Source: an uncultured Microthrixaceae bacterium (GTDB taxonomy: Bacteria > Actinomycetota > Acidimicrobiia > Acidimicrobiales > Microtrichaceae). From it: a stretch of 64,000 nucleotides of DNA. Positions 1 to 33,280 of the stretch are shown here, in pieces. Each line of letters opens with the position of its first letter. Within the stretch, counting starts at the first letter, position 1. The stretch covers positions 3,661 to 67,660 of the forward strand of contig CALNXV010000001.1 of assembly GCA_942490665.1 (NCBI GenBank), given 5' to 3'. A program made the position numbers and the translations under genes. The notes beneath the pieces were generated by a model. It was not told where the DNA came from. It made no database searches and worked only from the letters and a program-made list of their open reading frames with translations.

Positions 1-284
1 GCGGTCCCCACCGTAGAATGGAGATCGGGATGAGACCAACACACCAACCTGTCGGCACCTGACTGTTGAGAACGCGAATGTGTCGAAGCACTTCGCGAAC
101 CCGGCCTTCCTGGACGTGTTACGGAACGACTCGTCAACGGCTGACCGTCCTCGATCTCCTTCAATAAACTCCTATCGCGGGTTTGTGCAGGAGGAACACT
201 TGCGCCTCTTGTGACTGTGGGTGGGACTCTGCAGCCAAGTGACAACTGAACAGATCATCGGATTCTGCCATCGCCATCCTGATC

Positions 285-875
285 ATGTGGATCGGGGTAG
301 CGGGTTGCCCTGATCCCTGTGCTGCCGGGCACGCCCATCCTGCTGGCAGCCTCAGTGGCGCATCGGCTCTACTTCGGGGATACCGGCCCAAGCACCTTCG
401 TGCTGATTGTGCCGACCTTGCTCACGATGGTCTCGCTGATCTTCGATCAACTGGCCAGCATGGTGGGGGCGAAGAAGCTGGGCGCGACCTGATGAAAGGG
501 GTGACCGGTGCCGTCATTGGAGGATTGGTCGGACTGTTCTTCAACCTGCCCGGAATCATTCTCGGCCCGTTCATCGGTGCCACACTGTTCGAGTTATTCG
601 GAGATCGCGAGTTTCGTGACGCACTCAAGGCCGGCATCGGGGCCACGCTGGGCTTGCTGCTGGGTGTCGTCGGCAAGGTGGCCGTCAGCATGGTCATGAT
701 GCTGATGTTCAGTTGGAGCGTGGTGTCCAATTCGTTGGAAGCCAACAAGGCTGCACCGGAAGCTCCCGAGGCTCCGGCCGAAGAGCAGATATCCGCGCCG
801 ACCAATTCGGTCGTTTGGGTAGGTGACGACCACTCCCGTCTCCAGATCTATCATTCGGACAACGTGACAGCCTAG
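285..875 (+). pseudogene. DUF456-family small membrane protein, frame broken near 305 and 490
   Basis: The pieces MWIGVAG / ALIPVLPGTPILLAAS...MVGAKKLGAT(stop) / KGVTGAVIGGLVGLFFNLPGIILGPFIGATLFELFGD fit the DUF456 pattern but lie in different frames. Confidence 0.55.
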
Positions 876-1174
876 GCTCCCCATCAACCATTGGACCGCT
901 GCCACGTCCCCGAGCCTGCGACCCACCCGCACATTCGACAATAGCCTCCAAGTCCGACTGATGATCCTGTCGAATTGGAGCGTGCTACTGCCGCCTTCTG
1001 AGGTCCGTGGTCCCAAGGGTTGGGTGCCCCCCACTTCTGCCCCATATTCCGACCACTTCTGCCACACGCTTCGTCCCCTTCAATTCCACTTTGACTCCGC
1101 ACGCCATGGCGGATTATTCTTGTGCTCCTCATTTCCGAGGAGTTGTCCCTGACTTTGTGACAGAAAATTGAACC

Positions 1175-2430
1175 ATGGCTAAACTGACTGTTCGAGATCT
1201 GGATGTGAACGGCAAACGCGTGTTTGTGCGGGTGGATTACAATGTGCCCCTGGAGGAGAAGGACGGCCAGATGGTCGTCACCGACGCCACCCGCATCGAC
1301 GCCACCCTGCCCACGCTGCGAGCTGCTGATTGAACGCGGCGCCAAAATCATCCTCGCCGCCCACTGCGGACGCCCCAAGGGTCAACGGGTACCCTCCATG
1401 TCCCTGCGCCCCGCCGCCGCGAAACTGGCGGACCTCATCGGCTGCACCGTGAATTTCGTGGACGATTGCATCGGCGACAAGGTCGCGAGCGTGGTGGGCG
1501 GAATGGTGCCCGGGAGCATCGTCCTGCTGGAAAATGTTCGCTACCACGCCGAAGAGGAGAAGAACGATCCCGGGTTCGCCGAGAAGATGGCCAGCGGTGG
1601 CCGATGTCTATGTGAACGACGCGTTCGGCTCGGCCCATCGGGCGCACGCCTCCACCGAAGGCGTCGCGCGAGTCGTGGCCAAGCGCGGCGGCCAGTGCGC
1701 CGCCGGTCTACTCATGGAACGCGAACTCCAGTTTCTCGGCGACGAACTGGAGAACCCCGCGACGCCCGTTCGTCGTGATCCTCGGGGGCGCCAAGGTGTC
1801 CGACAAACTCAAGGCGGTGGCGCACCTGCTGGAGAAGGCGGACGCCATCCTGATCGGCGGCGCCATGGCCTACACCTTCCGCCTCGCCCAAGGTCACAAG
1901 ACCGGCGCCTCCCTGGTGGAACCGGACAAGGTGGACACCGCCAATGCCGCGCTGGCCAAGGCAAAGCAACGCAACGTCAAGTTCCTGCTGCCCACCGACG
2001 ACATCATTGCCGATCCGGTCAAGACCGAGAAGCTCGACAAGAAAGGCAAGCCGATCATCGAATGGCGGAATGCCCGCACGAACTCCGCGGCCGATGTGCC
2101 GGAAGGCGCCGCAGGGCTCGACATTGGCCCTGCGACCGTGCAGGCCTACGCGGAGGCATTGTCCGGTGCCAAGACCATTCTCTGGAACGGCCCCATGGGA
2201 CTCTTCGAGAACGCGGTTCGCCGCCGGCACCAACGCGGTGGCCCAGGCGGTTGCGGACGCCACCAGCCAACGGCGCCAAGAGCATCATCGGTGGTGGCGA
2301 CAGTGTGAAGGCCCTGAAAAAATCCGGACTGGGCGACAAGGTCACCTTCATGAGCACCGGGGGCGGCGCGAGCCTGGAATTTCTGGAAGGCATCGAGCTG
2401 CCCGGCGTGGCGGCATTGAGCGAAACATAG
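1175..2430 (+). pseudogene. pgk: phosphoglycerate kinase, at least five frame changes
   Basis: [84 protein letters not shown] and [13 protein letters not shown] are all PGK signatures. They are spread over the frames of ORFs 1175/1224/1534/1775/1944/1534. The total length is not a multiple of 3. Confidence 0.9.
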
Positions 2431-2505
2431 CGGAAGAATGGGATCTGGAGGGATGAGCTCTGCAGCCGTCCCACCTTGCAACATGCCAAAAATCCAATCT
2501 TGAAC

Positions 2506-3410
<905 letters not shown>

Positions 3411-3444
3411 GCAGCGCTGAGGTTGCATCAAGCCTTTCTGCACT

Positions 3445-3474
3445 CCCCTGCCGCTTTGGCAGGGGTTCTTTTTA
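3445..3474 (+). terminator. rho-independent terminator after tpiA
   Basis: Stem CCCCTGCC / GGCAGGGG (3445-3452 and 3458-3465) with a 5-nt loop, followed by TTCTTTTTA. Confidence 0.7.
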
Positions 3475-3564
3475 TGCCCATGCTGGCTTTGTCGGCACGT
3501 TGCCCCGATCGGGAACCTGCTGGAGCGCGGCTGTGTGCAGAGCACCAGCCAAACACCTTGGAGG

Positions 3565-3631
3565 CACGTTAGCTAGCCGAAGACATCGGGGGGCGGGGGG
3601 GGGAATCCAGCGAGCCAGGCTAGCGAACGTG
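3565..3631. repeat. 13/14 inverted repeat (3565-3578 / 3618-3631) enclosing a G6-C-G9 tract (3588-3603)
   Basis: CACGTTAGCTAGCC versus the reverse complement of GGCTAGCGAACGTG differs at one position. The loop contains GGGGGGCGGGGGGGGG. Confidence 0.7.
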
Positions 3632-3861
3632 CTGCAACTGGTTATCAACACAGCCGCGCTCCAGGTCAATACGCGGATCCGCCGCTTTGCCACGGGGCAG
3701 TGCAGAAGGCTTGTGCTCAGACTGCGATCCATTAGGATATCTGCGCTGAGCCCAGATTCCTTTCCGCCAGAAAAGCGTTCCAGGCACAGCCTCTGGAAGG
3801 GTCGCATGTCAGCCAGGAATTCAAAACCTTCAAAGCAACCTCAGGCAGATGGGGGCGTGCG

Positions 3862-4305
3862 GTGGCGGGACCGGCGCGGCGGCGCCACGCCTTTTCCCTG
3901 ATTGAACTCCTGATCGCCGTAGCGCTGGTGGTTATCATGTATGTGCTCTATTTGAGCGCCGGGTCCAAAAACTTCCAAACCAAGCAGAAGCAGGCCTGTC
4001 CGGAAAATCTCCAGAACACCTACATGGCGTTGAAGACCTATTCGGTTGAGAACACTGAGCAGTTCCCACTCGCCACCGAAGCTGCCACTTCCGAGGATGC
4101 ACTCGGTTTTACTCCTGCCCCGCTATACCACGGTGACTGAGTCCTTCATCTGCCCGGGCACAGACGACAAGACGCCTCCCCAGGCCAGGCCGTTCGGAAA
4201 AGCGAAGATCAGCTACGCCTATTACATGGGCCGAAACGCCGCCCAACCCGCCCAGTGGCCCTTGATGTCCGATGAACAGGTCAATGCGGACGCCAAGAAC
4301 GCTGG
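3862..4305 (+). pseudogene. prepilin-type N-terminal cleavage/methylation domain protein (pseudopilin-like), frameshifted near 4105 and 3'-truncated
   Basis: The N-terminus has ...HAFSLIELLIAVALVVIMYVL, the class III signal/methylation motif. It continues in another frame as ...FICPGTDDK...ISYAYYMGRN...WPLMSDEQ and ends abruptly at the argS fragment. Confidence 0.7.
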
Positions 4306-4315
4306 ACGAATCGAT
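4295..4315. other. internal joint: truncated pseudopilin gene fused to the 3' third of argS
   Basis: The pseudopilin reading (...NADAKNAG) and the ArgRS reading (LDESIAKAY...) change over within about 10 nt. No stop codon or intergenic spacer separates them. Confidence 0.6.
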
Positions 4316-4876
4316 CGCCAAGGCTTATACGATCGTCAGTGAAAACGACGACGCCAAGCCCAACGGCGAGGAACTCGATGAATCGGAACGTCGCCGCATC
4401 GCAGAGATCGTCGGACTGGGCGGCATCAAATTCGCCGACCTGCACCACAATCGCGACAGCGACTACGTCTTCAACTGGGACAAAATGCTCGCCACCACCG
4501 GCGACACGGCGACGTATATGCAATACGCCTATGCCCGTGTGTGCGGCATCCTTCGCCGTGCTGAGGTCGATCGGGAGTCGCTGCGAAAATCCGGTGCGAC
4601 CATACAGCTATCCCACAATGCGGAACGGCAACTTGTGTTAGCCTTTATTACGATTCCCCGAAGCGGCGCTCGCGGCGGCGGCGGAATATCAGCAGAACCT
4701 ACGGATTATCTGTTCAAAGCCGCCGGCGTGTTCAGCGGTTTTACGACGATGTCTGTCATAGAGCGGAAACGGACGACTTGCGCGGCACCAGCCGTTTATT
4801 GCTGTGCGACCTGACCGCCAGCGTGATCGCGCAGGGCCTTGAGTTGCTCGGGATTCACACCAGCGAACGGATGTAA
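4306..4876 (+). pseudogene. argS: arginyl-tRNA synthetase, C-terminal anticodon-binding part only, with further frameshifts
   Basis: GGIKFADLHHNRDSDYVFNWDKMLATTGDTATYMQYAYARVCGILRRA and the terminal SRLLLCDLTASVIAQGLELLGIHTSERM(stop) match the ArgRS C-terminus. Roughly the N-terminal two thirds of a full-length ArgRS (my length estimate) are absent. Confidence 0.8.
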
Positions 4877-5052
4877 TCGACACGACTTGCTCTCCGTGAT
4901 GGTTGTCCACGCTGCGCGGATTCTCTGAAAAATGTGAATCCTCGGGAATTATTTCTTGCTGCAGCGCATCTCTAATAGATAGCGAATGCCGGTCTCGCTC
5001 AATGCTTGCACCGCGACGCTAACTTCTATCGAACACGGTCACCTCACGATTC

Positions 5053-5775
5053 TTGAGGAGGGGATGCGATAAGCTGTTCTGGTCCTGCTGGGGCACGATG
5101 TGTATGGTTGGTTGCTACGAGTCGGATCGACCGATGGACGCAGAGAGAAAGGCGGCATCCTATGATGTCCAGTCCATGACACAAAGCTGTGCTCTCAGCG
5201 ACACAGATTTTAGCGGCGAAGCCTACGACCAGATTGTTGAAAACCGCTTCCTCAACACCGCGGTCAATCCCCTTTCGACGTTTTCAATCGACGTCGACAC
5301 CGCTTCGTACTCCAACGTTCGTCGCTTCTTGAAACAAGGACAGTTGCCACCGGCTGGGGCGGTGCGGATTGAGGAAATGCTCAATTATTTCCCGTACGAA
5401 TACCCTCCTCCCAGCGGCGACGAACCGTTTTCTGCCAGTATCGAAATGGCGGGTTGCCCCTGGAATCCGCACACACCTTGGCACGCATTGCTTTAAAGGG
5501 GCGTGAAATTCACGGCGCACCGCCCCGGTCAGCAATCTGGTGTTCTTGTTGGACGTCTCCGGATCGATGGCCGAACCCAATAAACTTCCGCTCGTCAAAT
5601 CGGCGATCCAAATGCTCGTCGACAATTTCGGAGAGAACGACCGCGTGGCGATCGTGGTCATGCCGGCGCATCCCGGACGGTGCTGCCCTCACCACTGGCG
5701 ATCAACGCGACGTGATTCACGATGCCCTGGAGCGGTTGAATGCCGGTGGCGGGACCGGCGGCGGCGCTGGTGTTG
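5053..5775 (+). pseudogene. von Willebrand factor type A domain lipoprotein (YfbK-like N-terminal domain plus vWA), frameshifted and 3'-truncated
   Basis: NPLSTFSIDVDTASYSNVRRFLKQGQLPPAGAVRIEEMLNYFPYEY (vWA N-terminal domain), [22 protein letters not shown] (MIDAS) and [16 protein letters not shown] lie in alternating frames. The domain is cut at ~5775. Confidence 0.75.
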
Positions 5776-5795
5776 TCCACGAGCTCGTCGCAGGC
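5760..5795. other. composition and gene-content breakpoint (chimeric joint)
   Basis: The + strand vWA and the - strand cpaF are both truncated within about 10 nt of each other. G+C and taxonomic flavour change here. Confidence 0.8.
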
Positions 5796-6348
5796 CGAGG
5801 TGATGGCCTCACCGGTGAACTTGCGGATGTTGAGCATCAGGTGCCCGCCCCGGCTGCAGGTCGCCGTGCACGATGTGGATCCGGGCGCCGTCCTCGAGCT
5901 GGGCGTCCTGGAGCCCCTCGGTGGCGTCGAGCTTGCGATGCGACGTCGACGAGTCCTCGAGCAGCTTCGACAGCGTGCGGGCCACGTGCTCGTCGTCGTG
6001 GAACACCTCGTGGTGGAACCTACTCCCGCCGGAGTGACGCCGGACGAAGATCTCGTCCGGCGCGTTGACCATCACCTCCCAGACGTCGTCGTCGGTGAGC
6101 AGCTCGGTGAGCGGCCCGTACCCGGCGAGGTTCCGCAGGGCCCGCTCCGCGAGGCCCGTGGGGTCCGGGAGGGTGAAGGGCCGCCGGCCCCGTCGGTGGT
6201 CGTCGCTCCACTCGGCGATGACCTCGTGGATCAGTTGTCGCAGTCGCTGCGCGCCCTGCGGCGTGTCGACGTCGAGCTGCCCGGCGGCGGCCCGGGCCTG
6301 CACCGTGCGTTCGACCTCCGCCAGCGGCGTCGGCGCCCCGGGAGTCAT
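5776..6348 (-). pseudogene. cpaF: CpaF/TadA-type pilus assembly ATPase, N-terminal part only (no Walker A), one internal frameshift near 5850
   Basis: MTPGAPTPLAEVER...GYGPLTELLTDDDVWEVMVNAPDEIFVRRHSGG...LDATEGLQDAQLEDGARIHIVHGDL, then GGHLMLNIRKFTGE in another frame. This is the T2SSE N-terminal pattern. The ATG is at 6346-6348. Confidence 0.75.
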
Positions 6349-7684
6349 GCGACCTCCGGGGGGCGGACCGGGTCCGTGCCCAGCTCGCCGGGGACGAGCC
6401 GCGCGCCGGCGGCCCGGTGGGGCCGACCGGGAAGGTCGAGGTCGGCGAGCTCCGCGAGCAGCGCGGGCAGCGAGCGGGCCAACGGCCGACTCCACCGCTG
6501 TGGCAGCGGCTCTGCGCTGCGGAGGCGATCGGCGACGCTGTCGATTGTGGGCGAGGAACAGCGGTCGCCGCGGAGCCGTGCTCGACGGGCTCGGTCGAGT
6601 CGAGCGAGTGTGCGGGTGTGCAGCGCCCGTTGACCGGGTGTGGGTGGGGCGTGGTTGACCACCGGTTGGACCCGGCGCGGATCGAGTCCGGCGTCGTCGA
6701 GCTCCTCGAGCAGACGCACGTGGCGATGCAGGCCCCACATGCCGGGTCGTCCGACCGCCACCACCAGATCCGCGAGCGCTGTCGCTCGGCGCGCCAGACC
6801 GTGGAGCTCCTCGACGTCGATGGAGCCGGTCTCGTCCTCGCCATCGAGGTCGGGATCGTGCTCGATGACCACGACGTCGTAGCTCCGGCGCAGCGCGTCG
6901 ATCGCCGGCGGCGAGCGGTGCAGAGCCGCATCACTGCGAGTCTCGGGGTCGGCGCACTCCGAGCAGCAGGTCGTAGCCACGCTCCCGCTGGCTGAACAGC
7001 ACCGACGGACCTCGTCGGGATCGAGTTCGTCGTGGCGGTGCGCATCCACCAGCTCGGGCAGGCCGGGGCACGTCGCCCACGTCGTGGTACATCGCCGCGG
7101 CGGCCCGGCGCGTGCCCTGTCGACCAGTGCGACCGCATCGACGCACCCGCAGCGATGGCGAGCGCGGGCCCTGGGCAGCTGCGCCAGGGTCTGAGCGATC
7201 GCCATCGCCACCGTCGAGGTCCCGGCCCCGGCGGCGCCGGCGCCACGGTGACCAGCCGGGCGTCACTGGGGGTGCGGCCTGCAGGGTCGACTGCACCGCG
7301 CCCTGCTGTTCGCGACGATCGGTCGACGGTGCGGCGTGTCGCGTCAGCGCCTCCATCAACTCACCGCGCTCGAAGTGCTCGTCGAGGACCGCAGCGGCGC
7401 CGAGGGACTCCCAGTCGCGACGGGTCCGGCCGTCGTCGACCACGAACACTGCTGCGGCCGATGACGACGCCAGCGCGAACAGCTCCCGGTCCACCCCGCC
7501 CAACCCGGCGTCGACGAGCAGCGCCGAGATCCGTCGTCCGGAGCCGAACAGGGCCCGCACCTCGTCGGGGTCGAGGCACTTCAGGTAGTCGATCGGGGCC
7601 ACGGCTGCGGTGGACCAGCGGGCAGCTCGCGAACCAGCCCTGTCGGGAGCGGGCCAGGCCGATGAGGACGAAGCGGTCGTTCAT
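6345..7684 (-). pseudogene. CpaE/TadZ-like ParA-family ATPase with receiver-like N-terminus, several frame changes
   Basis: MNDRFVLIGLA (its ATG overlaps the cpaB stop), APIDYLKCLDPDEVRALFGSGRRISALLVDAG, the P-loop-like GAGAAGAGTSTVAMAIAQ, and YDVVVIEHDP. It sits between cpaB and cpaF. Confidence 0.55.
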
Positions 7685-8395
7685 CGGTCCGGCTCCTCGT
7701 CGACCGGTGCCGGCAGAGCGAGCGTGACCTCGGCGCGGACCGAGGCATCGACCACCGCTGCCGCCACCTCGCCATCGCGGAGCGAGAGGCGAACCGTCAC
7801 CGTCGACGCTGAACCGATGCCGCCCGGCTCGGTCGTCACCCTGGTCGACGACGGTCGCAGCGGCGACCCGGTCGGTTCCTGCCGCTGCCGGATCGGTGGC
7901 CAGCACCTCGACGCGGTCTCCCCGCTCGAGCGCACCCAGCATCGCTCGCGACGACGGGAGATCGAGCGCCACCTCGACCGCGTCGGGATCGGCGAACCGC
8001 CCGGGCTCGTGGAGATCGCTCGGTCGGAGCAGGTCGAGCTCGTCGAGACCGGTCGCCGCGACGCGGCCGAGGATGTTCGCGGCCTCGGTCTCCTGCACGG
8101 CGGCGAGCTCGCCGGGCAGGTCGAGCGCGACCGAACCGAGGTGGTCGGCGGACACCGTGGTACCGGCCGCGACATCGGCGGTGAGGACCAGGTAGCGGGT
8201 GCTGGGCGGCGTGCTCGCCGCACGATGGGCGCTCAGCCCGCCGGCAGCGGCAGAAAGCACTAAGCGGGCCGCCGACCACGGCCCGCCCCGAGGGCAGCCC
8301 AAGCGGAACCACCAGCGGGAACCGTCGGGCCGCGGCGACCGCCGAACGGGTCGCTCCCGGCGGTCATCGCGTTCGCTGTTCCCGGCTCTGCTCAC
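7681..8395 (-). pseudogene. cpaB: CpaB/RcpC-like Flp pilus assembly protein (SAF domain), frameshift near 7830; start uncertain
   Basis: RYLVLTADVAAGTTVSADHLGSVALDLPGEL...LDLLRPSDL...DRVEVLATD, then TVTVRLSLRDGEVAAAVVDASVRAEVTLALP in a second frame. Confidence 0.5.
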
Positions 8396-8505
8396 ATACG
8401 ACCCTCCCCCAGGTCCCGGCAGAGAAGGTATGAAACAGCATGAAAGCAATCCAAGAGGGATGTGAACAACTCCAGCATCACCGAAGGTCGTGTAGGTCAC
8501 CCGAC

Positions 8506-8787
8506 ATGTCGTGGGGCCTCGCTAGGCTCGAAGCCGTGAGCACTGCCGACATCGAGTGGCTGAACACCAACGAGACGGCCAAGCGTCTCGGGATCACCCC
8601 GCGCACCCTCTACCGCTTCATCGATGACGGAAAGATCCCCGCCTACCGCTTCGGCCGGGTGATCCGACTGAAGGAGAGCGAGGTCGCCGAGTTCATCGAG
8701 CAGAGCCGCATCGTTCCGGGCACGCTGGAACCGGCATCGCTCGACGCTGGCGAGGTCGCTCGACGCCGGGACGCACCGCAGGTCTGA
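8506..8787 (+). CDS. excisionase/MerR-like helix-turn-helix DNA-binding protein
   Basis: NETAKRLGITPRTLYRFIDDGKIPAYRFGRVIRLKESEVAEFIEQ matches the HTH_17 pattern. An alternative GTG start lies at 8536. Confidence 0.7.
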   Translation: MSWGLARLEAVSTADIEWLNTNETAKRLGITPRTLYRFIDDGKIPAYRFGRVIRLKESEVAEFIEQSRIVPGTLEPASLDAGEVARRRDAPQV

Positions 8788-8801
8788 GGACCGGGCCGGG
8801 C

Positions 8802-9319
8802 TCAGCGCCCGGGTCGGCTCTCGCCGGACCCGGAGCCGGCCGTCAGCCCGAGCATGCGGTCCAGACGGATCACCGCGGTCCGGGCGGGTCGGTGCGATCT
8901 CGAGCACCAGCGAGGCGCCGCAGGCCAGCACCTCGCCGTGCAGCACCTCTCCGACCAGCATCGCCGTCGACGCGGTCGTGGTGTCGATCAGATCGCACAG
9001 CACCTCCGTCGAGGCGACGTCGCCGACCGGTCCGCAGGGTCGCCCACGGAGCTGCCCGGTCGATTCGACCGCGGTCGAGCGCGGTCGAGCGACAGCCACC
9101 AGATCGGCAGAGCCCGAGCGCAGGTCGACCACGTCGTCGCCGACGGCGAACACCGGCCCACCAGTCCGGCGCCGCTCCGGCCAGGTGCACGGTGACCTGT
9201 TGATCCACCGCTCCCAGCAGCGCCGACACCGGATCGTGACCGACCGCTCGGTGGCCGCTCGATCGCCGGCGCTGCGCGGCGGCCTCGTCGCGTCGCCTCG
9301 GCGGTGAAGTGATCGGCAT
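8802..9319 (-). pseudogene. hypothetical protein, frame broken at least twice (weak PilZ-like hints)
   Basis: The only protein-like readings are on the - strand and sit in three frames: MPITSPPRRRDEAAAQRRR...VSALLGAVDQQVTVHLAG / PVFAVGDDVVDLRSGSADLVAV...GEVLHGEVLACGASLVLEIAP / TAVIRLDRMLGLTAGSGSGESRPGR(stop at 8802). Confidence 0.3.
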
Positions 9320-9454
9320 CGTCGACCGGATCTCCGCAACGAGCCCTCATCCATGACGTCTCCCCGGTTCGCCGGGGTCGGGACCGCCGCGCCGTCGGAG
9401 AAGTCGAACTCGCCGCCGGCGCGGCGCGGGTTCACCACTACACTGTGCTGCGAA

Positions 9455-10512
9455 ATGGAACGACTCGACACCCCCGGCGCCACCGAGGGCCCCGGGGGCG
9501 GCATCGGCACCGCGACTGACGACCCCGCCCGGACCCTCGTGCGAGTCCCGGGGAACCACCTGATGACCGACCTGCTCGGTCCGCGCGACGAGTTCCTCGA
9601 CCTGATCGAGGACGCCTTCCCGCGCACGGTCGTCACGGTGCGCGGCAACGAGGTCTCGGTGGTCGGGTCCCGACTCGGCCATGGTCGGGCACCCTGTTCG
9701 GCGAGCTGGTCCTGCTGCTCGAGGCCGGCCACCGTCTCGAGACGGCCTCGGTGCGCCGCACGATCGACATGATCCGAGCCGACGAGCGACCGTCCGAGGT
9801 GCTGACTGCGGAGCTGCTGCGCACCCACCGCGGCGGCTACGTGCGCCCCAAGACCTCGGGTCAGAAGCGCTACGTCGACGCGATCGCCGCGAACACCATC
9901 ACCTTCGGCATCGGGCCCGCCGGCACCGGCAAGTCCTGGCTCGCGGTCGCGATGGCCTGCCAGGCGCTGCAGGCGAAACAGGTCGAGCGGATCGTGCTGA
10001 CCCGTCCGGCGGTCGAGGCGGGGGAGCGGCTCGGGTTCCTGCCCGGTGACCTGATGGCCAAGGTCGACCCCTACCTGCGTCCGCTCTACGACGCGCTCCA
10101 CGACATGGTCGGAGCGGAGGGCGCCCAGAAGCTCCTGGAGCGCGGGGTGGTCGAGGTCGCGCCGCTCGCCTTCATGCGCGGCCGCACGCTCAACAACTCC
10201 TTCATCATCCTCGACGAGGCCCAGAACACCTCGCCGGAGCAGATGAAGATGTTCCTGACCCGCATCGGCTTCGGGTCCTAGGCCGTCGTCACCGGCGACG
10301 CCACCCAGGTCGACGTGCCCGGGGGACGCTCCGGTCTCGGCGGGATCGAGGAGATCCTGGGCGAGATCGACAGCGTCGCGTTCGTCCGGCTCACCGGGTC
10401 CGACGTCGTGCGCCACCGGATCGTGCAGGACATCGTCGACGCGTACGAGCGCAGCGATGCCGCCGACGGGCAGGCAGCGCGACCGCGTGACGGGCCCGGC
10501 CGCCGCTCGTGA
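9455..10512 (+). pseudogene. phoH: PhoH-like ATPase with a frameshift near 9670-9690 and an in-frame TAG at 10279-10281
   Basis: [18 protein letters not shown] (Walker A), [29 protein letters not shown], and then GFGS(TAG)AVVTGDATQVDVP. Confidence 0.85.
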
Positions 10513-11028
10513 CCGTGAGCGACCGCGAACCTCCGCCGGCGAGCACGTCGGGGCCGACGGTGCTGATCTCCGACGAACGTGCGGTCGATGCCTCGCCGGC
10601 GGACCTGGACGGGCTCGGCGAGCTGCTGTCCCGGGTGCTGGCCGACGAGGGAGCGCCCGGCGGGGCCGAGGCGTCGCTCGCCACTGGTCGACCGCGGCCA
10701 TCGCGGAGCTCTAGCCGTCGAGCACCTGGACGGCGACGGGTCGCCCACCGACGTGCTGAGCTTCCCCGTCGACGGCGTCGGCGCCGACGCCGAGCTGGTC
10801 GGCGACGTCGTGGTCTGCCCCGACGGTCGCCGCCGAGCAGGCTCCGGACGCACGCCGGGTCGCTCGACGACGAGCTGGCGCTGCTGGTGGTCCACGGCGG
10901 GCTGCACCTGGCCGGCTGGGACCACGACGGTCACGGCGACCCAGCCGCGATGTGGGCACGTGAGCGGGAGCTGCTCACCGAGCTGCACGGGCGCCGTCCG
11001 CGACCCGTGGAGCGCTGCGACACCATGA
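10509..11028 (+). pseudogene. ybeY: rRNA maturation endoribonuclease YbeY, several frame changes
   Basis: GSPTDVLSFPVDG, VVVCP, TVAAEQAPD and HAGSLDDELALLVVHGGLHLAGWDHD (the H-x-x-x-H-x-x-x-x-x-H metal site) lie in different frames. A stop is reachable only in the frame ending at TGA 11026-11028, which overlaps the next ATG. Confidence 0.8.
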
Positions 11029-12301
11029 CCACCGTCGACATCGTGATGCTCGCCGTGGTGGTGGTGCTCACGCTCACCGCCGCGGTGCTCGCCCTCGCCG
11101 AGACCTCGATCACCCGGATGAGCCGCTCGCGTGCCGCGGCGCTCGCGCAGAGCGACCCGCGCGGCGGCGCGCGGGTGCTGCGCATCGTCGAGAACCTCGA
11201 ACGCGACCTGAACTCGGTCTACCTGTCGGTCAACATCGTGCAGACCATCCAGTCGGCGCTCGTCGGCGTGCTCTCCGCCCGGCTGTTCGGTGCGGCTGGG
11301 CGTCGCCATCGGCATCATCATCAACGTCCTGGTGCTGTTCGTCATCGCCGAGGCGGCCCCCAAGACTTGGGCGCTGCAGCACACCGAACGTGCCGCGTTG
11401 CTGACCGCGCCGCTCGTCGAGCTCGCCGGCCGCGTGCTGCGCCTGCCCGCACGGCTGCTCATCGGTGTCGCCAACGTCATCCTGCCGGGCAAGGGCCTCA
11501 AGAAGGGTCCGTTCGTCACCGAGGAGGAGATCCTGGCGCTCGCCGAGGAGGCGATGGAGCACGCCGTGATCGAGGAGTCCGAGCGTGACCTGATCGAGTC
11601 GATCATCGACTTCGGCGACACCGTGGCGCGCGAGATCATGGTGCCGCGCACCGACATGGTCACCGTTGGACGCCGACTCGAGCGTCGCCGAAGTGGTCGA
11701 CACAGCGATCGAGCGCGGGTTGTCCCGCATTCCCGTCTTCGGCGAGAACACCGACGACATCGTCGGCGTCGTCTACGTCAAGGACGCGATGCGCGCCGAG
11801 CGCGAAGGTGGGGCGGCACGCCCCGTGGGCGAGCTGGTCCACCCGGCGCTGTTCGTCCCCGAGACCAAGCGGGTCAGCGAGCTGCTCTCGGAGATGCAGT
11901 TGCGTCACACCCACATGGCGATCGTCGTCGACGAGTACGGCGGCACCGCGGGCCTGGCGACCCTCGAGGACCTGCTCGAGGAGCTGGTCGGCGAGATCAC
12001 CGACGAGTTCGACGATGAGGTCCCCAACGTCGAGGAGCTGCCTGGCGGCGACGTGTTGGTCAACGCGACCCTCAACGTCGACGACGTCAACGAGGAGCTC
12101 GACCTGGAGCTGCCGGAGGGGAACTGGGACTCCGTCGGCGGGCTGGTGTTCGGCCTGCTCGGGCGGGTTCCGGTGCCGGGCGACGCGGTCGAGGTGGACG
12201 GCATCCAGCTCGTCGTCGAGCGGGTCGACGGACGTCGCGTGACCCGGGTCCGACTCGTGCGACCGGAACCCGCGCTGGCCGAGACCGAGGACGCCGGATG
12301 A
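11025..12301 (+). pseudogene. DUF21-CBS-CorC_HlyC family membrane protein (TlyC/CorC-like), frameshifts near 11285 and 11665
   Basis: ETSITRMSRSRAAAL, AEAAPKTWALQH, EESERDLIESIIDFGDTVAREIMVPRTDMV, MAIVVDEYGGTAGLATLEDLLEELVGEI and IQLVVERVDGRRVTRVRL. Confidence 0.8.
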
Positions 12302-12314
12302 CCGGGCGCACGGG

Positions 12315-13312
12315 ATGAGTGGCGAGGAACCGCCTCCGGATTCCGACCACGGACCAGCCTCGCCAGCGGACGACGGACCCACGTCGGACCCGGCTGCGGG
12401 GCCGACGGTCGACCTCGATGCGATGCTCGCCGCAGCGGGGATCGCGGCGGACGAGGACTCGACGCCCGAGGGACACCGCTCCGGCTTCGTGACGCTGGTG
12501 GGGCGCCCGAACGTCGGCAAGTCGACCCTGGTCAACCGGATCCTCGGCCAGAAGGTCTCGATCGTCTCGGACAAGCCGCAGACCACGCGCCACCAGGTCC
12601 GCGGTGTGCTCACGCGGCCCGACACCCAGGTGGTCTTCGTCGACACACCGGGAATCCACAAGCCACGCACGCTCATGGGGGAGCGGCTGAACGACACTGC
12701 GACCGGCGCGCTCGACGGCATCGATATCGCCTGTCTCGTCGTCGACGCGACGGCACCGATCGGCCCGGGTGACCGCTTCATCGCCCAGCGGCTTCCGGCC
12801 GACGCGGTGCTGGTGCTGAACAAGATCGACCGCGCCGACGACGCCCGCGTGCTCGCGCAGCTGGCCGCGGCCTCGGACCTCGAGCTGTCGGAGTACTTCC
12901 CGATCTCGGCGCGCACGGGATCCGGGGTGGATGCGCTGGTGGATCACCTCGTGTCGCGTCTGCCCGAGGGGCCGCGCTGGTACCCCGGCGGACGAGGTCA
13001 GCGACGTCCCCGAGCCGTTCCTGGGTCGCCGAGCTGGTGCGCGAGCAGTTGCTGGCAGTGTCGCGCGAGGAGCTGCCGCACTCGATCGCGACGCGCGTCG
13101 TCGAGTGGGAGTGGCCGCGGATCCGTGTCGAGATCCTCGTCGAGCGCGACTCCCAGAAGGGCATCGTGATCGGCCGGGGCGGATCGGTGCTCAAGGAGGT
13201 CGGCACCCGCGCTCGGGCGCAGCTGCCGCCGGGTGCGTTCCTCGAGCTGCACGTCACCGTCGAGAAGAACTGGCAGTCGCGCGCCGCGTCCCTCGAGCGC
13301 CTCGGGTACTGA
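12315..13312 (+). pseudogene. era: GTPase Era, two +1 frame shifts (extra G near 12989 and near 13024)
   Basis: GRPNVGKSTLVN, DTPGIHKP, LNKID, then ADEVSDVPEPFL, then AELVREQLL...KGIVIGRGGSVLKEVG (KH domain), in three successive frames. Confidence 0.88.
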
Positions 13313-13356
13313 TCGCCTCGTCGGCCACGACGGGGCCCGTCGTCTCCTCGGGTACG

Positions 13357-14095
13357 GTGCGCCACGTGGATCTCTCCGAGCTCGACCCCTCGCGCATCCC
13401 GACCCACGTCGCCATCGTGATGGACGGCAACGGGCGCTGGGCGCAGCGCCGCGGCCTGCCCCGCACGGACGGCCACGCGGCGGGCGAGGAGGCGCTGATG
13501 GACACGATCTGGGGGGCGCTCGACGCCGGGGTCCGCTGGCTCACCGTGTACGCGTTCTCCACCGAGAACTGGAAGCGACCCGTCGACGAGGTCCGCTTCC
13601 TCATGAACTTCAACGAACGCCTCCTGCTCACGCGCCGCGACGAGCTGAACGAGCGAGACGTCAAGATGCAGTTCATCGGCCGCCGCGACTGGCGGGTCCC
13701 GAAGCGGATCCTGCGCCACATCGACCGGACGCTCGAGCTGACGAAGGACAACCGGGCCATGACGGTGAGCATGGCGTTCAACTACGGAGGGCGGGCCGAA
13801 CTCGTCGATGCCGTCCGTTCGATCGTCGACAGCGGGAGTCCCGGCGGACAAGGTGACCGAGTCCACGATCCGCCGGCACCTCTACGACCCGACGATGCCG
13901 GACCCGGAGCTGATGGTGCGGACCTCGGGGGAACACCGCATGTCGAACTTCCTGATGTGGGAGACCGCCTACTCGGAGTTGGTGTTCACCGACGTGCTGT
14001 GGCCCGACTTCCGCCGATCGAACCTCTACGACGCGATCCACGAGTACCAGCGCCGCGACCGGCGTTTCGGCGGTCTGTCCGACGCGGCGCCATGA
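13357..14095 (+). pseudogene. uppS: undecaprenyl/isoprenyl diphosphate synthase, one frameshift near 13846
   Basis: HVAIVMDGNGRWA, LTVYAFSTENWKRP, then [25 protein letters not shown] in the +1 frame. Confidence 0.85.
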
Positions 14096-18445: not shown

Positions 18446-20302
18446 GTGGGGATCGTGGACGAGGACATCGCACGGGTGCGCGAGGCGACCGACATCGTCG
18501 CGGTCATCTCCCAGTTCACCCAGCTCAAGCGAGTGGGCCAGCGATGGAGCGGCCTGTGCCCGTTCCACGCGGAGAAGTCGCCGAGTTTCTCGGTCAACCC
18601 GACCGAGGGGCTCTACCACTGCTTCGGCTGCAAGGCCTCGGGTGACGCGATCACCTTCCTGCGCGAGAAGGAGCAGCTCGACTTCGTCGGCGCGGTCGAG
18701 CAGCTCGCCGCACGGGCGTCCATCGTGCTGCGCTACACCGATCACGACGAGGGCGAAGGGCGCAAGCGGCGCACCCGGCTCTTCGAGCTGACCGAACGCG
18801 CCGCCGACTGGTACCACGAGCGACTCCGCTCGTCGCCCGATGCCGCTGCGGCGCGGGCCTATCTCCGCTCCCGCGGGTTCGACGCGCAGGAGGTGGCCAC
18901 CTTCCGGATCGGCTGGGCGCCCGACGCGTGGGATCTGCTGAGCCGCGAGCTGCGAGCGTCGCGGGCAGACCTGGAGGCGAGCGGCCTGGGGTTCCAGAAC
19001 CGCGCCGGGCGCCTGCAGGACTTCTTCCGGGCACGGATCCTCTTCCCGATCCTCGATGAACGGGGCCAGGTGGTCGGCTTCGGTGGGCGGAAGCTGCCCG
19101 ACGGTGACGGGCCGAAGTACCAGAACAGCCGGGACAACCTCCTCTACGACAAGTCGAAGGTCCTCTACGGGCTGAACTGGGCGAAGGCCGACGCCGTCAA
19201 CCACAACGAGGTCGTCGTGTGCGAGGGCTACACCGACGTGATCGGCTTCGCCCGTGCCGGGGTGCCCCGTGCGGTGGCGACCTGCGGTACCGCGCTCACC
19301 GAGGAGCATGTGCGCCAGCTCAAGCGCTTCACCCGTCGGGTCGTGCTCGCGTACGACGCTGATGAGGCCGGGCGCACCGCGGCGGAGCGGGTCTACGCCT
19401 GGGAGCGAGCACACGAGATCGAGGTCGCCGTCGTCGACCTGCCTGCCGGCAGCGATCCCGACGAGCTCGCCCGAAGCGACCCCGAACGGCTGCGCCGGGC
19501 GGTCGAGGAGGCCCAGCCGTTCCTCGCGTTTCGTCTCGCCCGGGTGCTGAGCGGCGCGGATCTCCGCAGCGCCGAGGCACGCGCCCGACTCGCCGAGTCC
19601 GCGCTCGAGGTCATCGCGGAGCACCCCGACCCGTTGGTGCGTGACCAGTACGTCATGGAGCTGGCCGACACGGCCCGCATCGAGGCGCCACGGCTTCGGG
19701 AACGACTCGAGGCGCTCCGCCGCCGCCCGCGCCCGCAGCGCAGCGAGGAACGGTCCGCCCGGCGCAGCCCACGGCGAGACGATGAGCCGCTCCCGGACGA
19801 GCCGCCCCCGGGGGGCGCCGACGAGGACCCGCCGGTCGGGGTGCCACGGTTCGCCCCGATCCGCGACGGGGTCGAGACCGAGACGCTCCGCCTGGTGATC
19901 CACCAGCGTGATGTGGCAGTTCCGCTGCTCGACGAGGTGATGTTCACCCACCCCACGGCCCGGGCAGCGTGGAACGCGCTCGCCGAGCATCCCGGGGCGG
20001 CCGACGCAGCCCGGGAGGCGCCACCCGACGCCGCGGCGTTGATCACCCGTCTCGCGGTGGACAGCTCCGAGGTCGAGGCGACCGACGTGCTCGTACGGCT
20101 GTCGACCGAGGTGGGCCGCGAAGTGCTCGCCGAGCTCGAGTCCGCGGCGCGACGCTCCGATGACCCGCTCGCGTACAGCGAGTCGATCCGCTGGCTCAAG
20201 GTCACGCTCGACGAGCTGCGTCGACCACACACCGGGGTGGAAGCGCTGGGGCAGTTGCTAGCCTGGCTCGCAGATCGTCGACGAGTGACCGATCAGGGGT
20301 GA
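18446..20302 (+). CDS. dnaG: DNA primase
   Basis: Intact 618 aa with the zinc finger CPFHAEKSPSFSVNPTEGLYHCFGCKASGD and the TOPRIM motifs VVVCEGYTDV and VLAYDADEAG. Confidence 0.95.
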   Translation: MGIVDEDIARVREATDIVAVISQFTQLKRVGQRWSGLCPFHAEKSPSFSVNPTEGLYHCFGCKASGDAITFLREKEQLDFVGAVEQLAARASIVLRYTDHDEGEGRKRRTRLFELTERAADWYHERLRSSPDAAAARAYLRSRGFDAQEVATFRIGWAPDAWDLLSRELRASRADLEASGLGFQNRAGRLQDFFRARILFPILDERGQVVGFGGRKLPDGDGPKYQNSRDNLLYDKSKVLYGLNWAKADAVNHNEVVVCEGYTDVIGFARAGVPRAVATCGTALTEEHVRQLKRFTRRVVLAYDADEAGRTAAERVYAWERAHEIEVAVVDLPAGSDPDELARSDPERLRRAVEEAQPFLAFRLARVLSGADLRSAEARARLAESALEVIAEHPDPLVRDQYVMELADTARIEAPRLRERLEALRRRPRPQRSEERSARRSPRRDDEPLPDEPPPGGADEDPPVGVPRFAPIRDGVETETLRLVIHQRDVAVPLLDEVMFTHPTARAAWNALAEHPGAADAAREAPPDAAALITRLAVDSSEVEATDVLVRLSTEVGREVLAELESAARRSDDPLAYSESIRWLKVTLDELRRPHTGVEALGQLLAWLADRRRVTDQG

Positions 20303-20308
20303 CCACGG

Positions 20309-21601
20309 GTGAGCATCTGGCAGGCAGTGCCGGGCGAGGAGATCTCGGACCTGACGGCCCGTGCGGAGCGCAACGGTGGCGCGCTGTCCCTGGACGACGC
20401 CCTGAGCGCGCTCAAGGCAGAGATGACCGACGAGGTCATGGACCAGACACGGGCGTTCTGGGCGGAGCGCGGTGTGACGCTGCAGGTCGACGTCGAACCC
20501 GAGGGTGACCTGACCGCTGATCTGCCCGATGACGTGCTCGACGCCCCCGGGTCCACGACCGAGGTCGTGATCGACCCCGACGACGGACCGGCCGGGGACC
20601 TGATGCGTCGGCGTGTGGTGCGAACCGCCCGCCGGGCCACCCGACCCGTCTCGTTGCACGGCACCGGCGCCACTGCGGACCCGGTGCGGATGTACCTGCG
20701 CGAGATCGGCCAGGTGCCGCTGCTCGTCGCGTCCGAGGAGGTCGACCTCGCGAAACGGATCGAGGCAGGTGTGTTCGCCGAGGAGCGCCTCGCGGACCTC
20801 AACGCCTCGGGCGGCATCGACGACCTCGACGCCGTCGAGAAGGCGGGGCTGCGCCGGACGGTCCGCGACGGGGAACGCGCCAAGCAGGAGCTCACCCAGG
20901 CCAACCTGCGCCTCGTCGTGTCGATCGCCAAGCGGTACCTGGGCCGAGGCATGCAGATCCTGGACCTGATCCAGGAGGGCAACCTCGGGCTGATGCGTGC
21001 GGTCGAGAAGTTCGACTACACGAAGGGCTTCAAGTTCTCGACCTATGCGACCTGGTGGATCCGCCAGGCGATCACCCGTGCGATCGCGGATCAGGCCCGC
21101 ACGATCCGGATCCCGGTCCACATGGTCGAATCCATCAACAAGGTCCACCGGATCCAGCGCCAGATGATCCAGGACCTCGAGCGGGATCCGACGGTCGAGG
21201 AGCTCGCAGCGAAGGCGGAGCTGACCCCCCAACGGGTGCGCGAGATCATGCGGATCTCCCAGGATCCGCTGTCGCTCGACTCGCCGGTCGGCGACGAGGA
21301 GGACTCACACCTCGCGGACTTCATCGAGGATCAGCACGCCGTCATGCCCGCCGACGTCGCGACGGCCAACTCGTTGTCGGAGCAGATCATGTCGGCGCTC
21401 GACGAGCTGTCGGACCGCGAGAAGGAGGTCGTCCGCCTGCGATTCGGCCTCGACGGCAACCAGCCCCAGACGCTCGAGGAGGTCGGCAACCGCTTCGGCG
21501 TCACCCGTGAGCGGATCCGCCAGATCGAGGCCAAGACACTGGCGAAGCTGCGCCATCCGCAGCGACGCCAGAAGCTCGAGGACTATCTGCGGGCCGACTG
21601 A
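20309..21601 (+). CDS. rpoD: primary-like RNA polymerase sigma-70 factor
   Basis: Intact 430 aa with [58 protein letters not shown] and [20 protein letters not shown]. Confidence 0.93.
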
Positions 21602-28442: not shown

Positions 28443-28993
28443 CCCGCCGGCTCCACCTGCTCGCGCTGCGAGTGTTCGGCGTGCTCCCTCGCCGGGTGCG
28501 CCGCGCGCTCGTTCGCCTCGGATCGCCCAAGTACACCGTCGGCGCCATCTGCATCGTGGTGCGCGACGACGGGAAGGTCCTGCTGGTCCGACACACGTAC
28601 TGGAAGCTCTGGGGGACTCCCGGTGGGCTCGCCAACCGTGGCGAGCGCCCCGAGGTCGCGGTGCGTCGCGAGTGCCTCGAAGAGGTGAACCTGCGTGTCG
28701 ACCTCGTGGGTGAACCGGCGGTGGTGGTCGAGCCCGGTCCGCACCGTGTCGACGTCGTGTTCCTCGCCCGACCGGCAGCCGGTGCAGACCTCGATGAGGT
28801 GCGTCCCTCGTCGCCGGAGATCGAACGCCTCGACTGGTTCGACTTCGACGACCTGCCCCGCATCCAGCCCGAGACGGTCGCCGCGCTGCGTGCGCTGGAG
28901 CGCCGCGGGTTGATCGAGCTTCCGGAGTCGAGCATGGGCGGCAGGGGGCCGGGCAGTGGCGCCGCCGGTAGCATCGACGGCCCGGGCGCGTAG
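28436..28993 (+). CDS. NUDIX hydrolase
   Basis: Nudix box GGLANRGERPEVAVRRECLEEVNL. The start overlaps the IMPase stop. The stop TAG (28991-28993) lies inside the first 10 nt of tRNA-Val. Confidence 0.8.
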   Translation: MVTRRLHLLALRVFGVLPRRVRRALVRLGSPKYTVGAICIVVRDDGKVLLVRHTYWKLWGTPGGLANRGERPEVAVRRECLEEVNLRVDLVGEPAVVVEPGPHRVDVVFLARPAAGADLDEVRPSSPEIERLDWFDFDDLPRIQPETVAALRALERRGLIELPESSMGGRGPGSGAAGSIDGPGA

Positions 28994-29057
28994 CTCAGCT
29001 GGTCAGAGCACCTGGTTTACATCCAGGGAGTCGGGGGTTCGAGTCCCTCCGCGCCCA
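28984..29057 (+). tRNA. tRNA-Val (TAC)
   Basis: GGGCGCG/CGCGCCC acceptor, anticodon loop TTTACAT, T arm GGGGG-TTCGAGT-CCCTC. Confidence 0.9.
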
Positions 29058-29133
29058 CTCTCAGCTTCCTTGGGAACACCAGGCTTTCGGTCGTGGTGGC
29101 TGGGAAAGCAACGTGAGGTCGTGCCGGCAGTGG

Positions 29134-29665
29134 TCAGATAGAGGGCAACTCGGCAAGACAACTGGAGCACCAGCGGCACATCCGTCCGGGTGTCCGAGCC
29201 GCTAGCGCTGGCTGGATCAGCGGATCGGTAGCACGTTCTCGGCAGCAGCCGTCGGCGATGGCGGCGAGTTCGTCCTCACTGCCGGTGCCCAGAAGCTTCG
29301 GCCCAGTTCCCGGTCCCAGTCTGCGGGGTGCGGGTATGGCCGGACCGCTGTCGCGCTCCACGCTTCGGCGAACTCATCGATGCTCAGGGTCGATTCGGGC
29401 CGCTGGACGCGGAACGGGAGTGTTTTGGGAGACGACATGGATGCCGTTGTCCTCGGCTGTTGCGATCCAATCCGAGGCCGGGCCTCCGCCCGTGAGGGTG
29501 ATTGCGTGAAACCCGGTGTAGTCACGGTCGACGGTCGTCGTGTAATCGGGGATCACGCCGCGGAGATCGGAGCAAGCCTGCTGGTAGGAGATCTGGTGAC
29601 TGATCGGCCAGGGGGAGGTGGCCGGGTAGGGATTGGTCGGCGACCTCGTGCCCGGTAGCCCCGGC
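29134..29665 (-). pseudogene. decayed ORF of unknown function next to tRNA-Val
   Basis: Protein-like pieces in three frames: PWPISHQISYQQACSDLRGVIPDYTTTVDRDYTGFHAITLTGGGPASDWIATAEDNGIHVV / STLSIDEFAEAWSATAVRPYPHPADWDRELG / GTGSEDELAAIADGCCRERATDPLIQ. Confidence 0.4.
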
Positions 29666-29699
29666 GATCGGGCCCTCCGTGAACGCGGTCCCGCAGGTG

Positions 29700-31028
29700 C
29701 TACCTCTCCGTAGCCGCTTCGGGCGTCTCGAAGAGGTGGGCGTTGTGAAGGAACCCGTGGACGCTGAACGGCCTAGTGGCCTCCGCATGGTGCGGTGGGA
29801 ACACGAGCCATGCGGAGACCGCACCGAAGAGGCACATCACCCCGGATATGGCGAACGCCATGGGGAAGTTGCCGCCATCACCGAGCCAGCCACCGAGAAT
29901 GGGGAAGATGATCCCGCCCGCGCCGTAGGCGAGGAACACCCATGGGTAGTTGTCACCAACCACGTCGTTGCCGAACTCGTCGGCCGTGAGGGCCGGGAAC
30001 AGTGCGAAGTTGCCTCCGAAGTTGAATCCGATGAGAGCAGCGACCAGATACAGCGTGTACTCGTTGCCCGCCATGGTAGTGAATGCGAGCAGGAACACCC
30101 CCTGGCTCGCAGTCATGATGACCACCGACCGCCGCCGACCGATCCGGTCACTGAGGGTGCCCCAGACGAGGCGTCCGACGCCGTTCGCGATGCTGAAGAA
30201 GACCGCCATGGCAGTACCGGAGATCGCGCTGGCCTCGCTCTCGGAGATCCCGTTCTCACCCAGTGCCTCGATCGGATAGAGCTTCATCAGTCCGATTGCC
30301 ATCAGCCCTGCCCCGGCGCTCACCATGAAGGTGAGGGAGATCAGGTGGAACTGGGGCGTCCGCAGCATCTCGCGCGGCGTGAAGGACTCGCCCCCTGCCC
30401 CTGCGGCCTCAGGCGGCGTGAACCCCTCAGGGGTCCATCCCTTCGGCGGCATGACCATCATCGTGCTGCCGAGAGAAACCATCACCGCGAAAACGATCCC
30501 GTAGGTGCGGAACGTGCCGTCCAGTCCGATTCGTCCGATCAGGTCGCCCCAGGATCCGGCAAGCTTGATCCAGGCCAGGGCACCGAAACCGAACCCTGCG
30601 ACTGCCACGCCGGTGATCATCCCCTTGTGGTCGGGGAACCAACGCATCCCGACTGCGATCGGCACGACGTACCCGAGCCCGATCCCGGCCCCGGCGACCA
30701 GGCCCACGCCCAGCAGCACAGCTGTGAAGCTGGTTCCGCCCCCGATTCCGGCGATGAGGTAGCCGATCCCGATGGTGACGCCGGCCGCCAGCGCCAGGCG
30801 GCGCGGGCCCCATGAGCCCAGCTTTCGACCGGCGAACACCATGACGACCGCAAAGGTGGCGAGGCTGACCGAGAACACGATTTGGGTCTCGACCTTCGAC
30901 CAGCCGGCTTCGCGGAGAGCGGGCGTGAAGACCGACCACGAGTAGATCGCCCCCAGGCAGAGCTGGATGAGGACTGCGCCGAACGCGACTCTCCAACGAC
31001 CCGGTGTCCCAACCGCAGACTGACTCAT
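29700..31028 (-). CDS. MFS transporter, oxalate/formate antiporter (OFA)-like
   Basis: Intact 442 aa from the ATG at 31026-31028 with 12 hydrophobic spans, FAGRKLGSWGPRR, and WGTLSDRIGRRR in the second half. Confidence 0.85.
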   Translation of the reverse strand: MSQSAVGTPGRWRVAFGAVLIQLCLGAIYSWSVFTPALREAGWSKVETQIVFSVSLATFAVVMVFAGRKLGSWGPRRLALAAGVTIGIGYLIAGIGGGTSFTAVLLGVGLVAGAGIGLGYVVPIAVGMRWFPDHKGMITGVAVAGFGFGALAWIKLAGSWGDLIGRIGLDGTFRTYGIVFAVMVSLGSTMMVMPPKGWTPEGFTPPEAAGAGGESFTPREMLRTPQFHLISLTFMVSAGAGLMAIGLMKLYPIEALGENGISESEASAISGTAMAVFFSIANGVGRLVWGTLSDRIGRRRSVVIMTASQGVFLLAFTTMAGNEYTLYLVAALIGFNFGGNFALFPALTADEFGNDVVGDNYPWVFLAYGAGGIIFPILGGWLGDGGNFPMAFAISGVMCLFGAVSAWLVFPPHHAEATRPFSVHGFLHNAHLFETPEAATER

Positions 31029-31163
31029 TGCCGGGTCCCACGAACATAGACGGACCGATTCATGGCGCAACAATATGGCGCGGATCAACGCCGGCGGAAT
31101 CGAGTTGACCCGCTTTGTTGGACACCTTGATCCTCGGTTCGAGCCCAGAGGAGGGAGGCCCGG

Positions 31164-31312
31164 ATGGGTCGTCCATCGAAGCACGCCGAGGGGTTCCGGC
31201 GTGAAGCGGTCGCGTATTTCGCCAAGGAGACGACCAGGTGAGCCGCTTCCGGGCGGTCCCTGGATCACCTACCGTTGGCGATCATCGCGAAACGGACACC
31301 CATGGGCGCGTT
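31164..31312 (+). mobile_element. IS3-family transposase OrfA N-terminal remnant
   Basis: ATG 31164: MGRPSKHAEGFRREAVAYFAKETTR(stop at 31239-31241) resembles the IS3/IS911 OrfA start (PSKY..EFRREAV). A possible continuation SRFRAVPGSPTVGDHRET lies in the next frame. Confidence 0.5.
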
Positions 31313-31315
31313 GGC

Positions 31316-32008: not shown

Positions 32009-32111
32009 CGGCCCCTCCGTAATATGAGAATCTAGATTCGCATTGCGGGGAGGCGTGCTCAAGTCGGGCACGCGATCGAGTCGACCCGCGCCGCCAAGGG
32101 GGAGCGACCAC

Positions 32112-33068: not shown

Positions 33069-33280
33069 CGCTCGGACCAGCAGCTCCCCTCGACGCAGCT
33101 GGAGCGGCACATCCGAACGACGCGTTCCGTCCCCATCTCGGAGCGCATCTGGGACACGGCGACCAGGTGGTCGGAGGATCGATCGCGTGTCCGTTCCACG
33201 GGTGGCAGTTCGACCCCGCGGGGAGGAACACCAAGATCCCTGACAGCGCTCGGGTCAGTCGCTCGTGTTCGCTCGGTTGA
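33065..33280 (+). pseudogene. Rieske-domain remnant (first cluster Cys replaced by Arg, truncated)
   Basis: FRPHLGAHLGHGDQVVGGSIACPFHGWQFD carries RPH where CPH is expected. The ORF ends after 71 codons and runs into an HTH remnant. Confidence 0.55.

Follow-up and report, generated by a model that had tools for sequence, protein, structure and literature searches.

An exact joint between two truncated genes near the end of a deposited contig is almost certainly an artefact of assembly or sequencing

The 64,000-nucleotide stretch of DNA analysed here (hereafter the window) is divided between positions 5774 and 5775, where a plus-strand gene for a YfbK-type vWA protein and a minus-strand cpaF/tadA gene abut head-on with no nucleotide between them. 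A preliminary description of the same DNA, made from its letters, had taken the two sides for unrelated pieces that meet at a chimeric or artificial joint, and this reading is supported by the two origins of the sides and by the normal locus found in relatives. We conclude that the joint almost certainly arose as an artefact of assembly or sequencing and that, more specifically, it very probably represents a technical chimera within a poorly supported contig end and has no biological function. Overlooked in the preliminary description were frameshifts in both genes and in their neighbours, two further breakpoints in the left piece and the nearness of the contig end. The coordinates of all features are given in Table 1.

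Table 1. Segments and genes on either side of the joint (window coordinates)
Feature	Positions	Strand	Basis and remarks
Segment A, Verrucomicrobial	1-3254	+	DUF456, PGK, TPI; many 1-2 nt indels
DUF456	~270-938	+	Pfam
Phosphoglycerate kinase (PGK)	~1178-2430	+	Pfam 2e-143
Triosephosphate isomerase (TPI)	2506-3254	+	Pfam TIM 4e-95; last codons and stop missing
Segment A', Verrucomicrobial	3255-4305	+	SecG tail and prepilin-type protein
SecG C-terminal tail	3270-3404	+	tblastn with L081 proteins; fused behind TPI
Prepilin-type N-methylation protein	3802-4309	+	N_methyl motif; ends at residue 168 of 220
Segment B (1.47 kb)	4303-5774	+	argS and vWA fragments; at least 7 frameshifts
Arginyl-tRNA synthetase, last ~190 codons	4303-4876	+	Pfam tRNA-synt_1d 315-349/349 and DALR_1; ends ERM*
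YfbK-type vWA, first ~225 codons	5053/5098-5774	+	Pfam vWF_A and VWA 1-77/174
cpaF/tadA, N-terminal ~190 of 435 codons	5775-6348	-	tblastn; cut before Walker A
Acidimicrobiales chromosome, low quality	5775-13900		collinear with L001, L166, L167
Acidimicrobiales chromosome, clean	13901-64000		recO, dnaG, rpoD, ileS, class I RNR, GH31, MacB/FtsX permease intact

How exactly are the two genes cut? On the left, the vWA gene is still inside its domain when it reaches the joint, just as had been described: Pfam recognises a complete vWF_A but only profile positions 1-77 of 174 of VWA, and it finds no YfbK_C domain in the fragment, which homologous loci have downstream. Set against the YfbK-type architecture of vWF_A, VWA and YfbK_C, the fragment thus retains the MIDAS signature DxSxS and a partial VWA; the motif itself, DVSGSM, lies on the plus strand at 5552-5569, where the preliminary description had placed it (near 5550). 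When the gene is aligned with 15 homologues, the match is kept up to GGAGV, with the final codon gtt at 5772-5774; beyond 5774 the alignment fails, and all 15 homologues go on with I/Q-L-A-Y. On the right, tblastn with the full-length CpaF proteins of two relatives (L001 and L003) matches residues 1 to ~190 of ~430 on the minus strand, in keeping with the earlier claim that only an N-terminal part ahead of Walker A is present. Walker A and the C-terminal half of CpaF have no tblastn match anywhere in the 64-kb window, and Pfam finds no T2SSE domain (PF00437) on the fragment, whereas the full protein of a relative matches T2SSE. Judged from its sequence, the cpaF of the window is a gene fragment and not a functional CpaF/TadA ATPase.

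The joint itself is bare. The two genes had been said to meet head-on within about 10 nt; the head-on arrangement stands, and the distance shrinks to zero. Such a gap leaves no room for a stop codon, a terminator or a mobile-element end, and a repeat search of positions 1-9000 returned neither IS ends nor att-like repeats at the joint, so that the earlier observation of nothing between the genes holds. Eight blastx alignments stop exactly at 5775. Immediately before GTCCAC the window reads ggtgtt, the Gly-Val of the vWA gene, whereas relatives read accgcg, which encodes Arg and goes on into DRGSISADAARFL...GAPGSGKTT. Because no bases left of 5775 are shared between the window and the two relatives of 92% identity with which it was compared, there is no microhomology at the joint. 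Adapters (ONT, PacBio, Illumina/Nextera, 454 and Ion) are absent from the window and from each of its three joints, and an exact 60-mer spanning the joint has 0 matches in 185,579 GTDB species-representative genomes and in JGI metagenome contigs. The left piece also contains an exact 17-nt direct repeat, CGGTGGCGGGACCGGCG, with one copy (3860-3876) in the leader of the prepilin-like gene and the other (5744-5760) 14 nt left of the joint, inside the vWA gene and in another frame. When the left piece was simulated under a Markov-2 model, only 0.3% of the simulations held a repeat as long as this.

The composition of the DNA changes abruptly at the same place, in base content as well as in oligonucleotide signature. 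G+C is 0.600 in 1-5775 and 0.708 in 5776-64000, close to the 55-60% and roughly 70% obtained by hand in the preliminary description. The segmentation proposed there places the best single G+C change point of the 64 kb at 5637-5741, with no further one found on recursion. In tetranucleotide distance, the left chunk departs from ten right-hand chunks with z = 9.1, and its GC-normalised tetranucleotide correlation with the bulk is 0.41, against 0.91-0.97 for those ten chunks. A codon model that had learned from long genes of the right side treats 1-5766 as almost wholly non-coding and has coding start at 5767.

A switch of gene content had likewise been noticed at the joint, and homologues assign the two sides to different organisms. 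By its gene content and gene order, the right piece is the chromosome of an Acidimicrobiales (Microthrixaceae-like) actinomycetote. The CpaF N-terminus, used as a query, retrieved 80 loci in species-representative genomes (best amino acid identity 74%), nearly all of them labelled Acidimicrobiales, Microthrixaceae, Iamiaceae or more broadly Actinomycetota, with few others; CpaF ORFs extracted from six of the 80 loci run on through Walker A in every case. From 15,744 down to 5,848 the window is collinear with L001, past which it has no L001 match; the genes come in the order recO, uppS, era, corC, ybeY, phoH, an HTH_17 gene, a SAF/cpaB-like gene, a tadZ-like gene and cpaF. That dnaG, rpoD, ileS and class I ribonucleotide reductase are all intact indicates that the piece is chromosomal, and its clean part (13901-64000) carries 3 tRNAs.

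Do close relatives possess the same adjacency? They do not; their locus is uninterrupted. The cpaF ORF of the window (5809-6348) falls into a 90% cluster with proteins of 435 aa, and two contigs, L166 (ENA ERZ25039514, contig_66539, 30,423 bp) and L167 (ENA and NCBI ERZ25039603, contig_54207, 96,345 bp), align with the window by blastn at 92% nucleotide identity from exactly 5775 to the end of the locus. Where a related genome with vWA next to cpaF had been named as an observation that would speak against a chimera, both contigs instead have an intact cpaF of 435 aa, with tadB, tadC and further small genes behind it. The assemblies of these relatives are themselves prone to indels: recO is called with 68 aa in L166 (1526-1732), and ybeY is shortened to 83 aa in L167 (3764-4015). 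Names of the form contig_NNNN do no more than hint at a long-read assembler; together with the frameshifts, they show only that such assemblies are indel-prone. On one related contig, a 720-aa protein (P0385) is a fusion of CpaF and TadB.

The left piece is a mosaic of at least three segments. On the basis of homology across 234-4309, it is assigned to Verrucomicrobiota, while segment B can be called only non-actinobacterial, from its composition. After frame correction, PGK shares 88-90% amino acid identity with proteins of which all named ones come from Verrucomicrobia MAGs, and a Verrucomicrobiae protein falls into the same cluster as the TPI fragment (90% or more). Over 234-4309 the window is collinear, at ~82% nucleotide identity, with the JGI contigs L081 and L083, which carry DUF456, pgk, tpiA, secG and a 220-aa prepilin-like gene. 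Within this stretch, a first breakpoint lies at ~3254 (3254-3270), where TPI homology ends six codons before its stop and runs in frame into the SecG tail; ~313 nt of L081 are missing here, namely the end of tpiA, the spacer and SecG codons 1-95. This break may reflect a genuine deletion in the Verrucomicrobium concerned or be one more artefactual joint. The stretch that separates the SecG tail from the prepilin-like gene holds a perfect 17-nt inverted repeat (3520-3536 and 3648-3664, with a spacer of 111 nt). At a second breakpoint, ~4305 (4303-4307), the prepilin-like gene gives way on the same strand to an internal part of argS, comprising the end of the catalytic domain and DALR; ArgRS homology to contig L086 (78% amino acid identity) starts at 4302-4303, and Verrucomicrobial relatives have at this position a PQQ-repeat gene, not argS. 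None of 80 ArgRS-related loci has a vWA gene near argS, and the contigs of the best vWA matches (62-66% amino acid identity) show no synteny with the window. The two genes may be natural neighbours, or another joint may be hidden between 4876 and 5053.

The errors in the sequence are graded along the window. Frameshift density is ~4.3 per kb in the left piece, 1.5 per kb in 5.8-13.9 kb and 0.02 per kb beyond (P = 0.003 for the former step and 6e-10 for the latter). Relative to its homologues, the left piece has ~19 indels of 1-2 nt over 4.4 kb that are coding; pgk has 5 of them, tpiA 3, DUF456 2-3, the prepilin-like gene 2, the argS fragment at least 3 and the vWA fragment 4. Frameshifts in the right piece were called by Viterbi segmentation under the codon model combined with a stop-codon test, and by comparison of each gene with relatives; a frame track from best-HSP blastx was dropped as too noisy, owing to shadow ORFs in high-GC DNA. 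Twelve frame switches that do not coincide with a gene end fall into 5.8-13.9 kb (5848, 7063, 7610, 7787, 9152, 9679, 10681, 10839, 11286, 11663, 12981 and 13829), and one into the remaining 50 kb. Half of the twelve (5848, 9679, 11286, 11663, 12981 and 13829) were confirmed by a single open frame in several of the eight relatives compared. Against L166, single-base insertions appear in phoH (~9663/9701), corC (11295 and 11670), era (12983 and 13015) and uppS (13837), all four of which are intact in L166 and L167, and the cpaF fragment has a +1 insertion at ~5857 and 3 additional nt at 5792-5798. The sole candidate outside the low-quality zone, at ~24996, is a frame switch on the minus strand with no stop nearby.

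The indels are mostly insertions of 1-2 nt that lie outside long homopolymers, a pattern that gives no clean pointer to one sequencing platform. Era and UppS are essential in bacteria, and pseudogene decay in bacteria is biased towards deletion. Since the essential era and uppS are affected and are intact in relatives, the frameshifts are sequence errors and not pseudogenes; decay was rejected as their cause on this ground and because the indels are biased towards insertion. The joint accordingly sits in a terminal zone in which consensus quality falls stepwise towards the contig end.

Was the fusion made when the window was cut? Exact look-ups place the ORFs of either side on the same NCBI contig, which is 71,161 bp long, on the left as frameshift-truncated ORFs (492-875, 1775-2308, 2991-3410 and 3862-4140) and on the right at 5809-6348, 18446-20302, 20309-21601, 54698-57976 and 58246-59874 (window coordinates). 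With both sets on a single deposited contig, neither the fusion nor the frameshifts can stem from the cutting of the window. As the window comprises 64,000 of the 71,161 bases, the foreign part amounts to 5.8-12.9 kb at one contig end.

Most likely, a contig end with very low read support was lengthened with long reads, one or a few in number, that were chimeric or mis-joined, so that the Acidimicrobiales sequence would have been abandoned in the middle of cpaF, near the contig end, and replaced by Verrucomicrobial and other foreign fragments, with too few reads left to correct the consensus there. Such an extension would account for the blunt, homology-free fusion, the internal breakpoints, the stepwise rise in indels and the absence of the adjacency in relatives. 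We infer the low read support from the frameshift densities of 4.3, 1.5 and 0.02 per kb, and we infer likewise the step that made the fusion, be it a ligation chimera or an assembler mis-join, and the sequencing platform. A blunt junction devoid of homology argues against a graph error at a shared k-mer, and the lack of an adapter argues against the simple and commonest kind of in-silico concatenation of nanopore reads (PMC6156371). Two routes are left: fragments may have been ligated physically, or the assembler may have mis-joined sequences where depth was very low. One aspect does not fit: segments A and A' derive from one locus, in the same orientation and 313 nt apart, which is not what random ligation predicts and counts against the chimera.

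Could the junction nevertheless be real? Actinobacteria commonly have Ku and LigD, and a double-strand break in cpaF might have been repaired by homology-free end joining that captured Verrucomicrobial fragments, which would now be decaying as junk. A blunt junction free of microhomology, an insert that is a patchwork of several fragments and the contiguity of the sequence in the deposited contig all agree with such an acquisition across phyla. We nevertheless consider it highly improbable: the locus is intact in close relatives, the insert shows no amelioration at all, and its cargo consists of housekeeping-gene fragments with no mobility gene; the frameshifts extend into the essential native era and uppS, which speaks for data quality and not for decay, the insertion bias of the indels is unlike pseudogene decay, and only one boundary is visible, at the contig end. 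A variant that treats the frameshifts as an unrelated effect of low coverage, and the junction as a cpaF break end-joined with several environmental Verrucomicrobial pieces, appears extremely improbable to us; if true, it would be a natural capture of multiple DNA fragments across phyla, caught before any amelioration.

Other technical routes to the joint are conceivable. Chimeras arising from mis-joins at common k-mers are known in metagenome assemblies, and the surroundings of the joint are GGC-rich and of low complexity, as a mis-join in a short-read de Bruijn graph via a k-mer common to both genomes might lead one to expect. However, ggtgtt stands against accgcg left of 5775 and vWA homology reaches 5774, leaving no shared k-mer, and dense indels of 1-2 nt are atypical of short-read assemblies, which makes this route very unlikely. 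Alternatively, separate contigs, for example of one bin, may have been strung together with no spacer N's between them, whether the depositor did so in scaffolding or it happened in cutting the window. That genes are truncated on both sides of the boundary, as they would be at contig ends, and that segment B measures only 1.47 kb would suit this idea, which is highly unlikely all the same, because the left and right ORFs are recorded on a 71,161-bp contig larger than the window and because the error-rich zone runs 8 kb across the joint, which is unexpected for an independent, well-covered contig. The technical chimera at a poorly supported contig end is thus the reading that we retain.

How does this chimera compare with known cases? 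Inter-genome chimeric contigs in metagenome assemblies and MAGs are flagged as contamination by GUNC-type tools. The present case shares with them an abrupt switch of taxonomy, k-mers and G+C within one contig, genes truncated at the switch, an adjacency absent in relatives and the position at a contig terminus; it differs in that the junction is resolved to the nucleotide, that the foreign part is a mosaic of at least three segments and that a graded indel zone ties it to low read support and not to a shared repeat. With genomic islands and other HGT insertions it has in common a composition break and a foreign taxonomic signal beside native genes. Unlike islands, it offers neither an integrase nor a tRNA target (no tRNA gene occurs in 1-21,000), and it lacks direct repeats and accessory cargo; most of 1-5774 consists of fragments of housekeeping genes, namely pgk, tpiA, secG and argS, with half a vWA gene, and pgk, tpiA and argS are core functions whose composition is unameliorated. 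Nor does an island agree with the single visible boundary, with the other half of the host gene out of view and intact in relatives, or with the loss of coding capacity, since decay is not limited to the insert and frameshifts extend 8 kb into native genes. In nanopore data, 2-3% of mapped reads are chimeric, and an adapter in mid-read is their usual signature (PMC6156371). Like such reads, the window joins unrelated molecules head-on or head-to-tail within one read-length stretch, and its residual rate of single-base indels is compatible with a consensus of nearly a single read; unlike in them, none of its three joints retains a trace of an adapter or barcode.

The biological importance of the joint is none, and no new system is involved. 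Its use lies in quality control: one end of a 71,161-bp contig that is public at NCBI consists of 5.8-12.9 kb of foreign mosaic sequence, and ~8 kb of native sequence beside it have frameshift errors in essential genes, so that any inference of gene content, HGT or pseudogenes from the first ~14 kb of the window would be wrong. The case also provides a recipe by which such artefacts can be recognised without reads, from four signals that coincide: two genes cut at exactly the same nucleotide, a change of taxon, relatives in which the locus is intact and indels whose density is graded.

Within the right piece, one region stands apart in composition. In 28984-36000, directly past tRNA-Val (28984-29058), a stretch begins that has a G+C of ~0.66 against 0.71; no other right-hand chunk has so low a tetranucleotide correlation (0.91), and its genes encode an MFS transporter, a TetR regulator, a Rieske/KshA-like oxygenase and a beta-lactamase-family protein. 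This looks like an ordinary accessory region or a small island.
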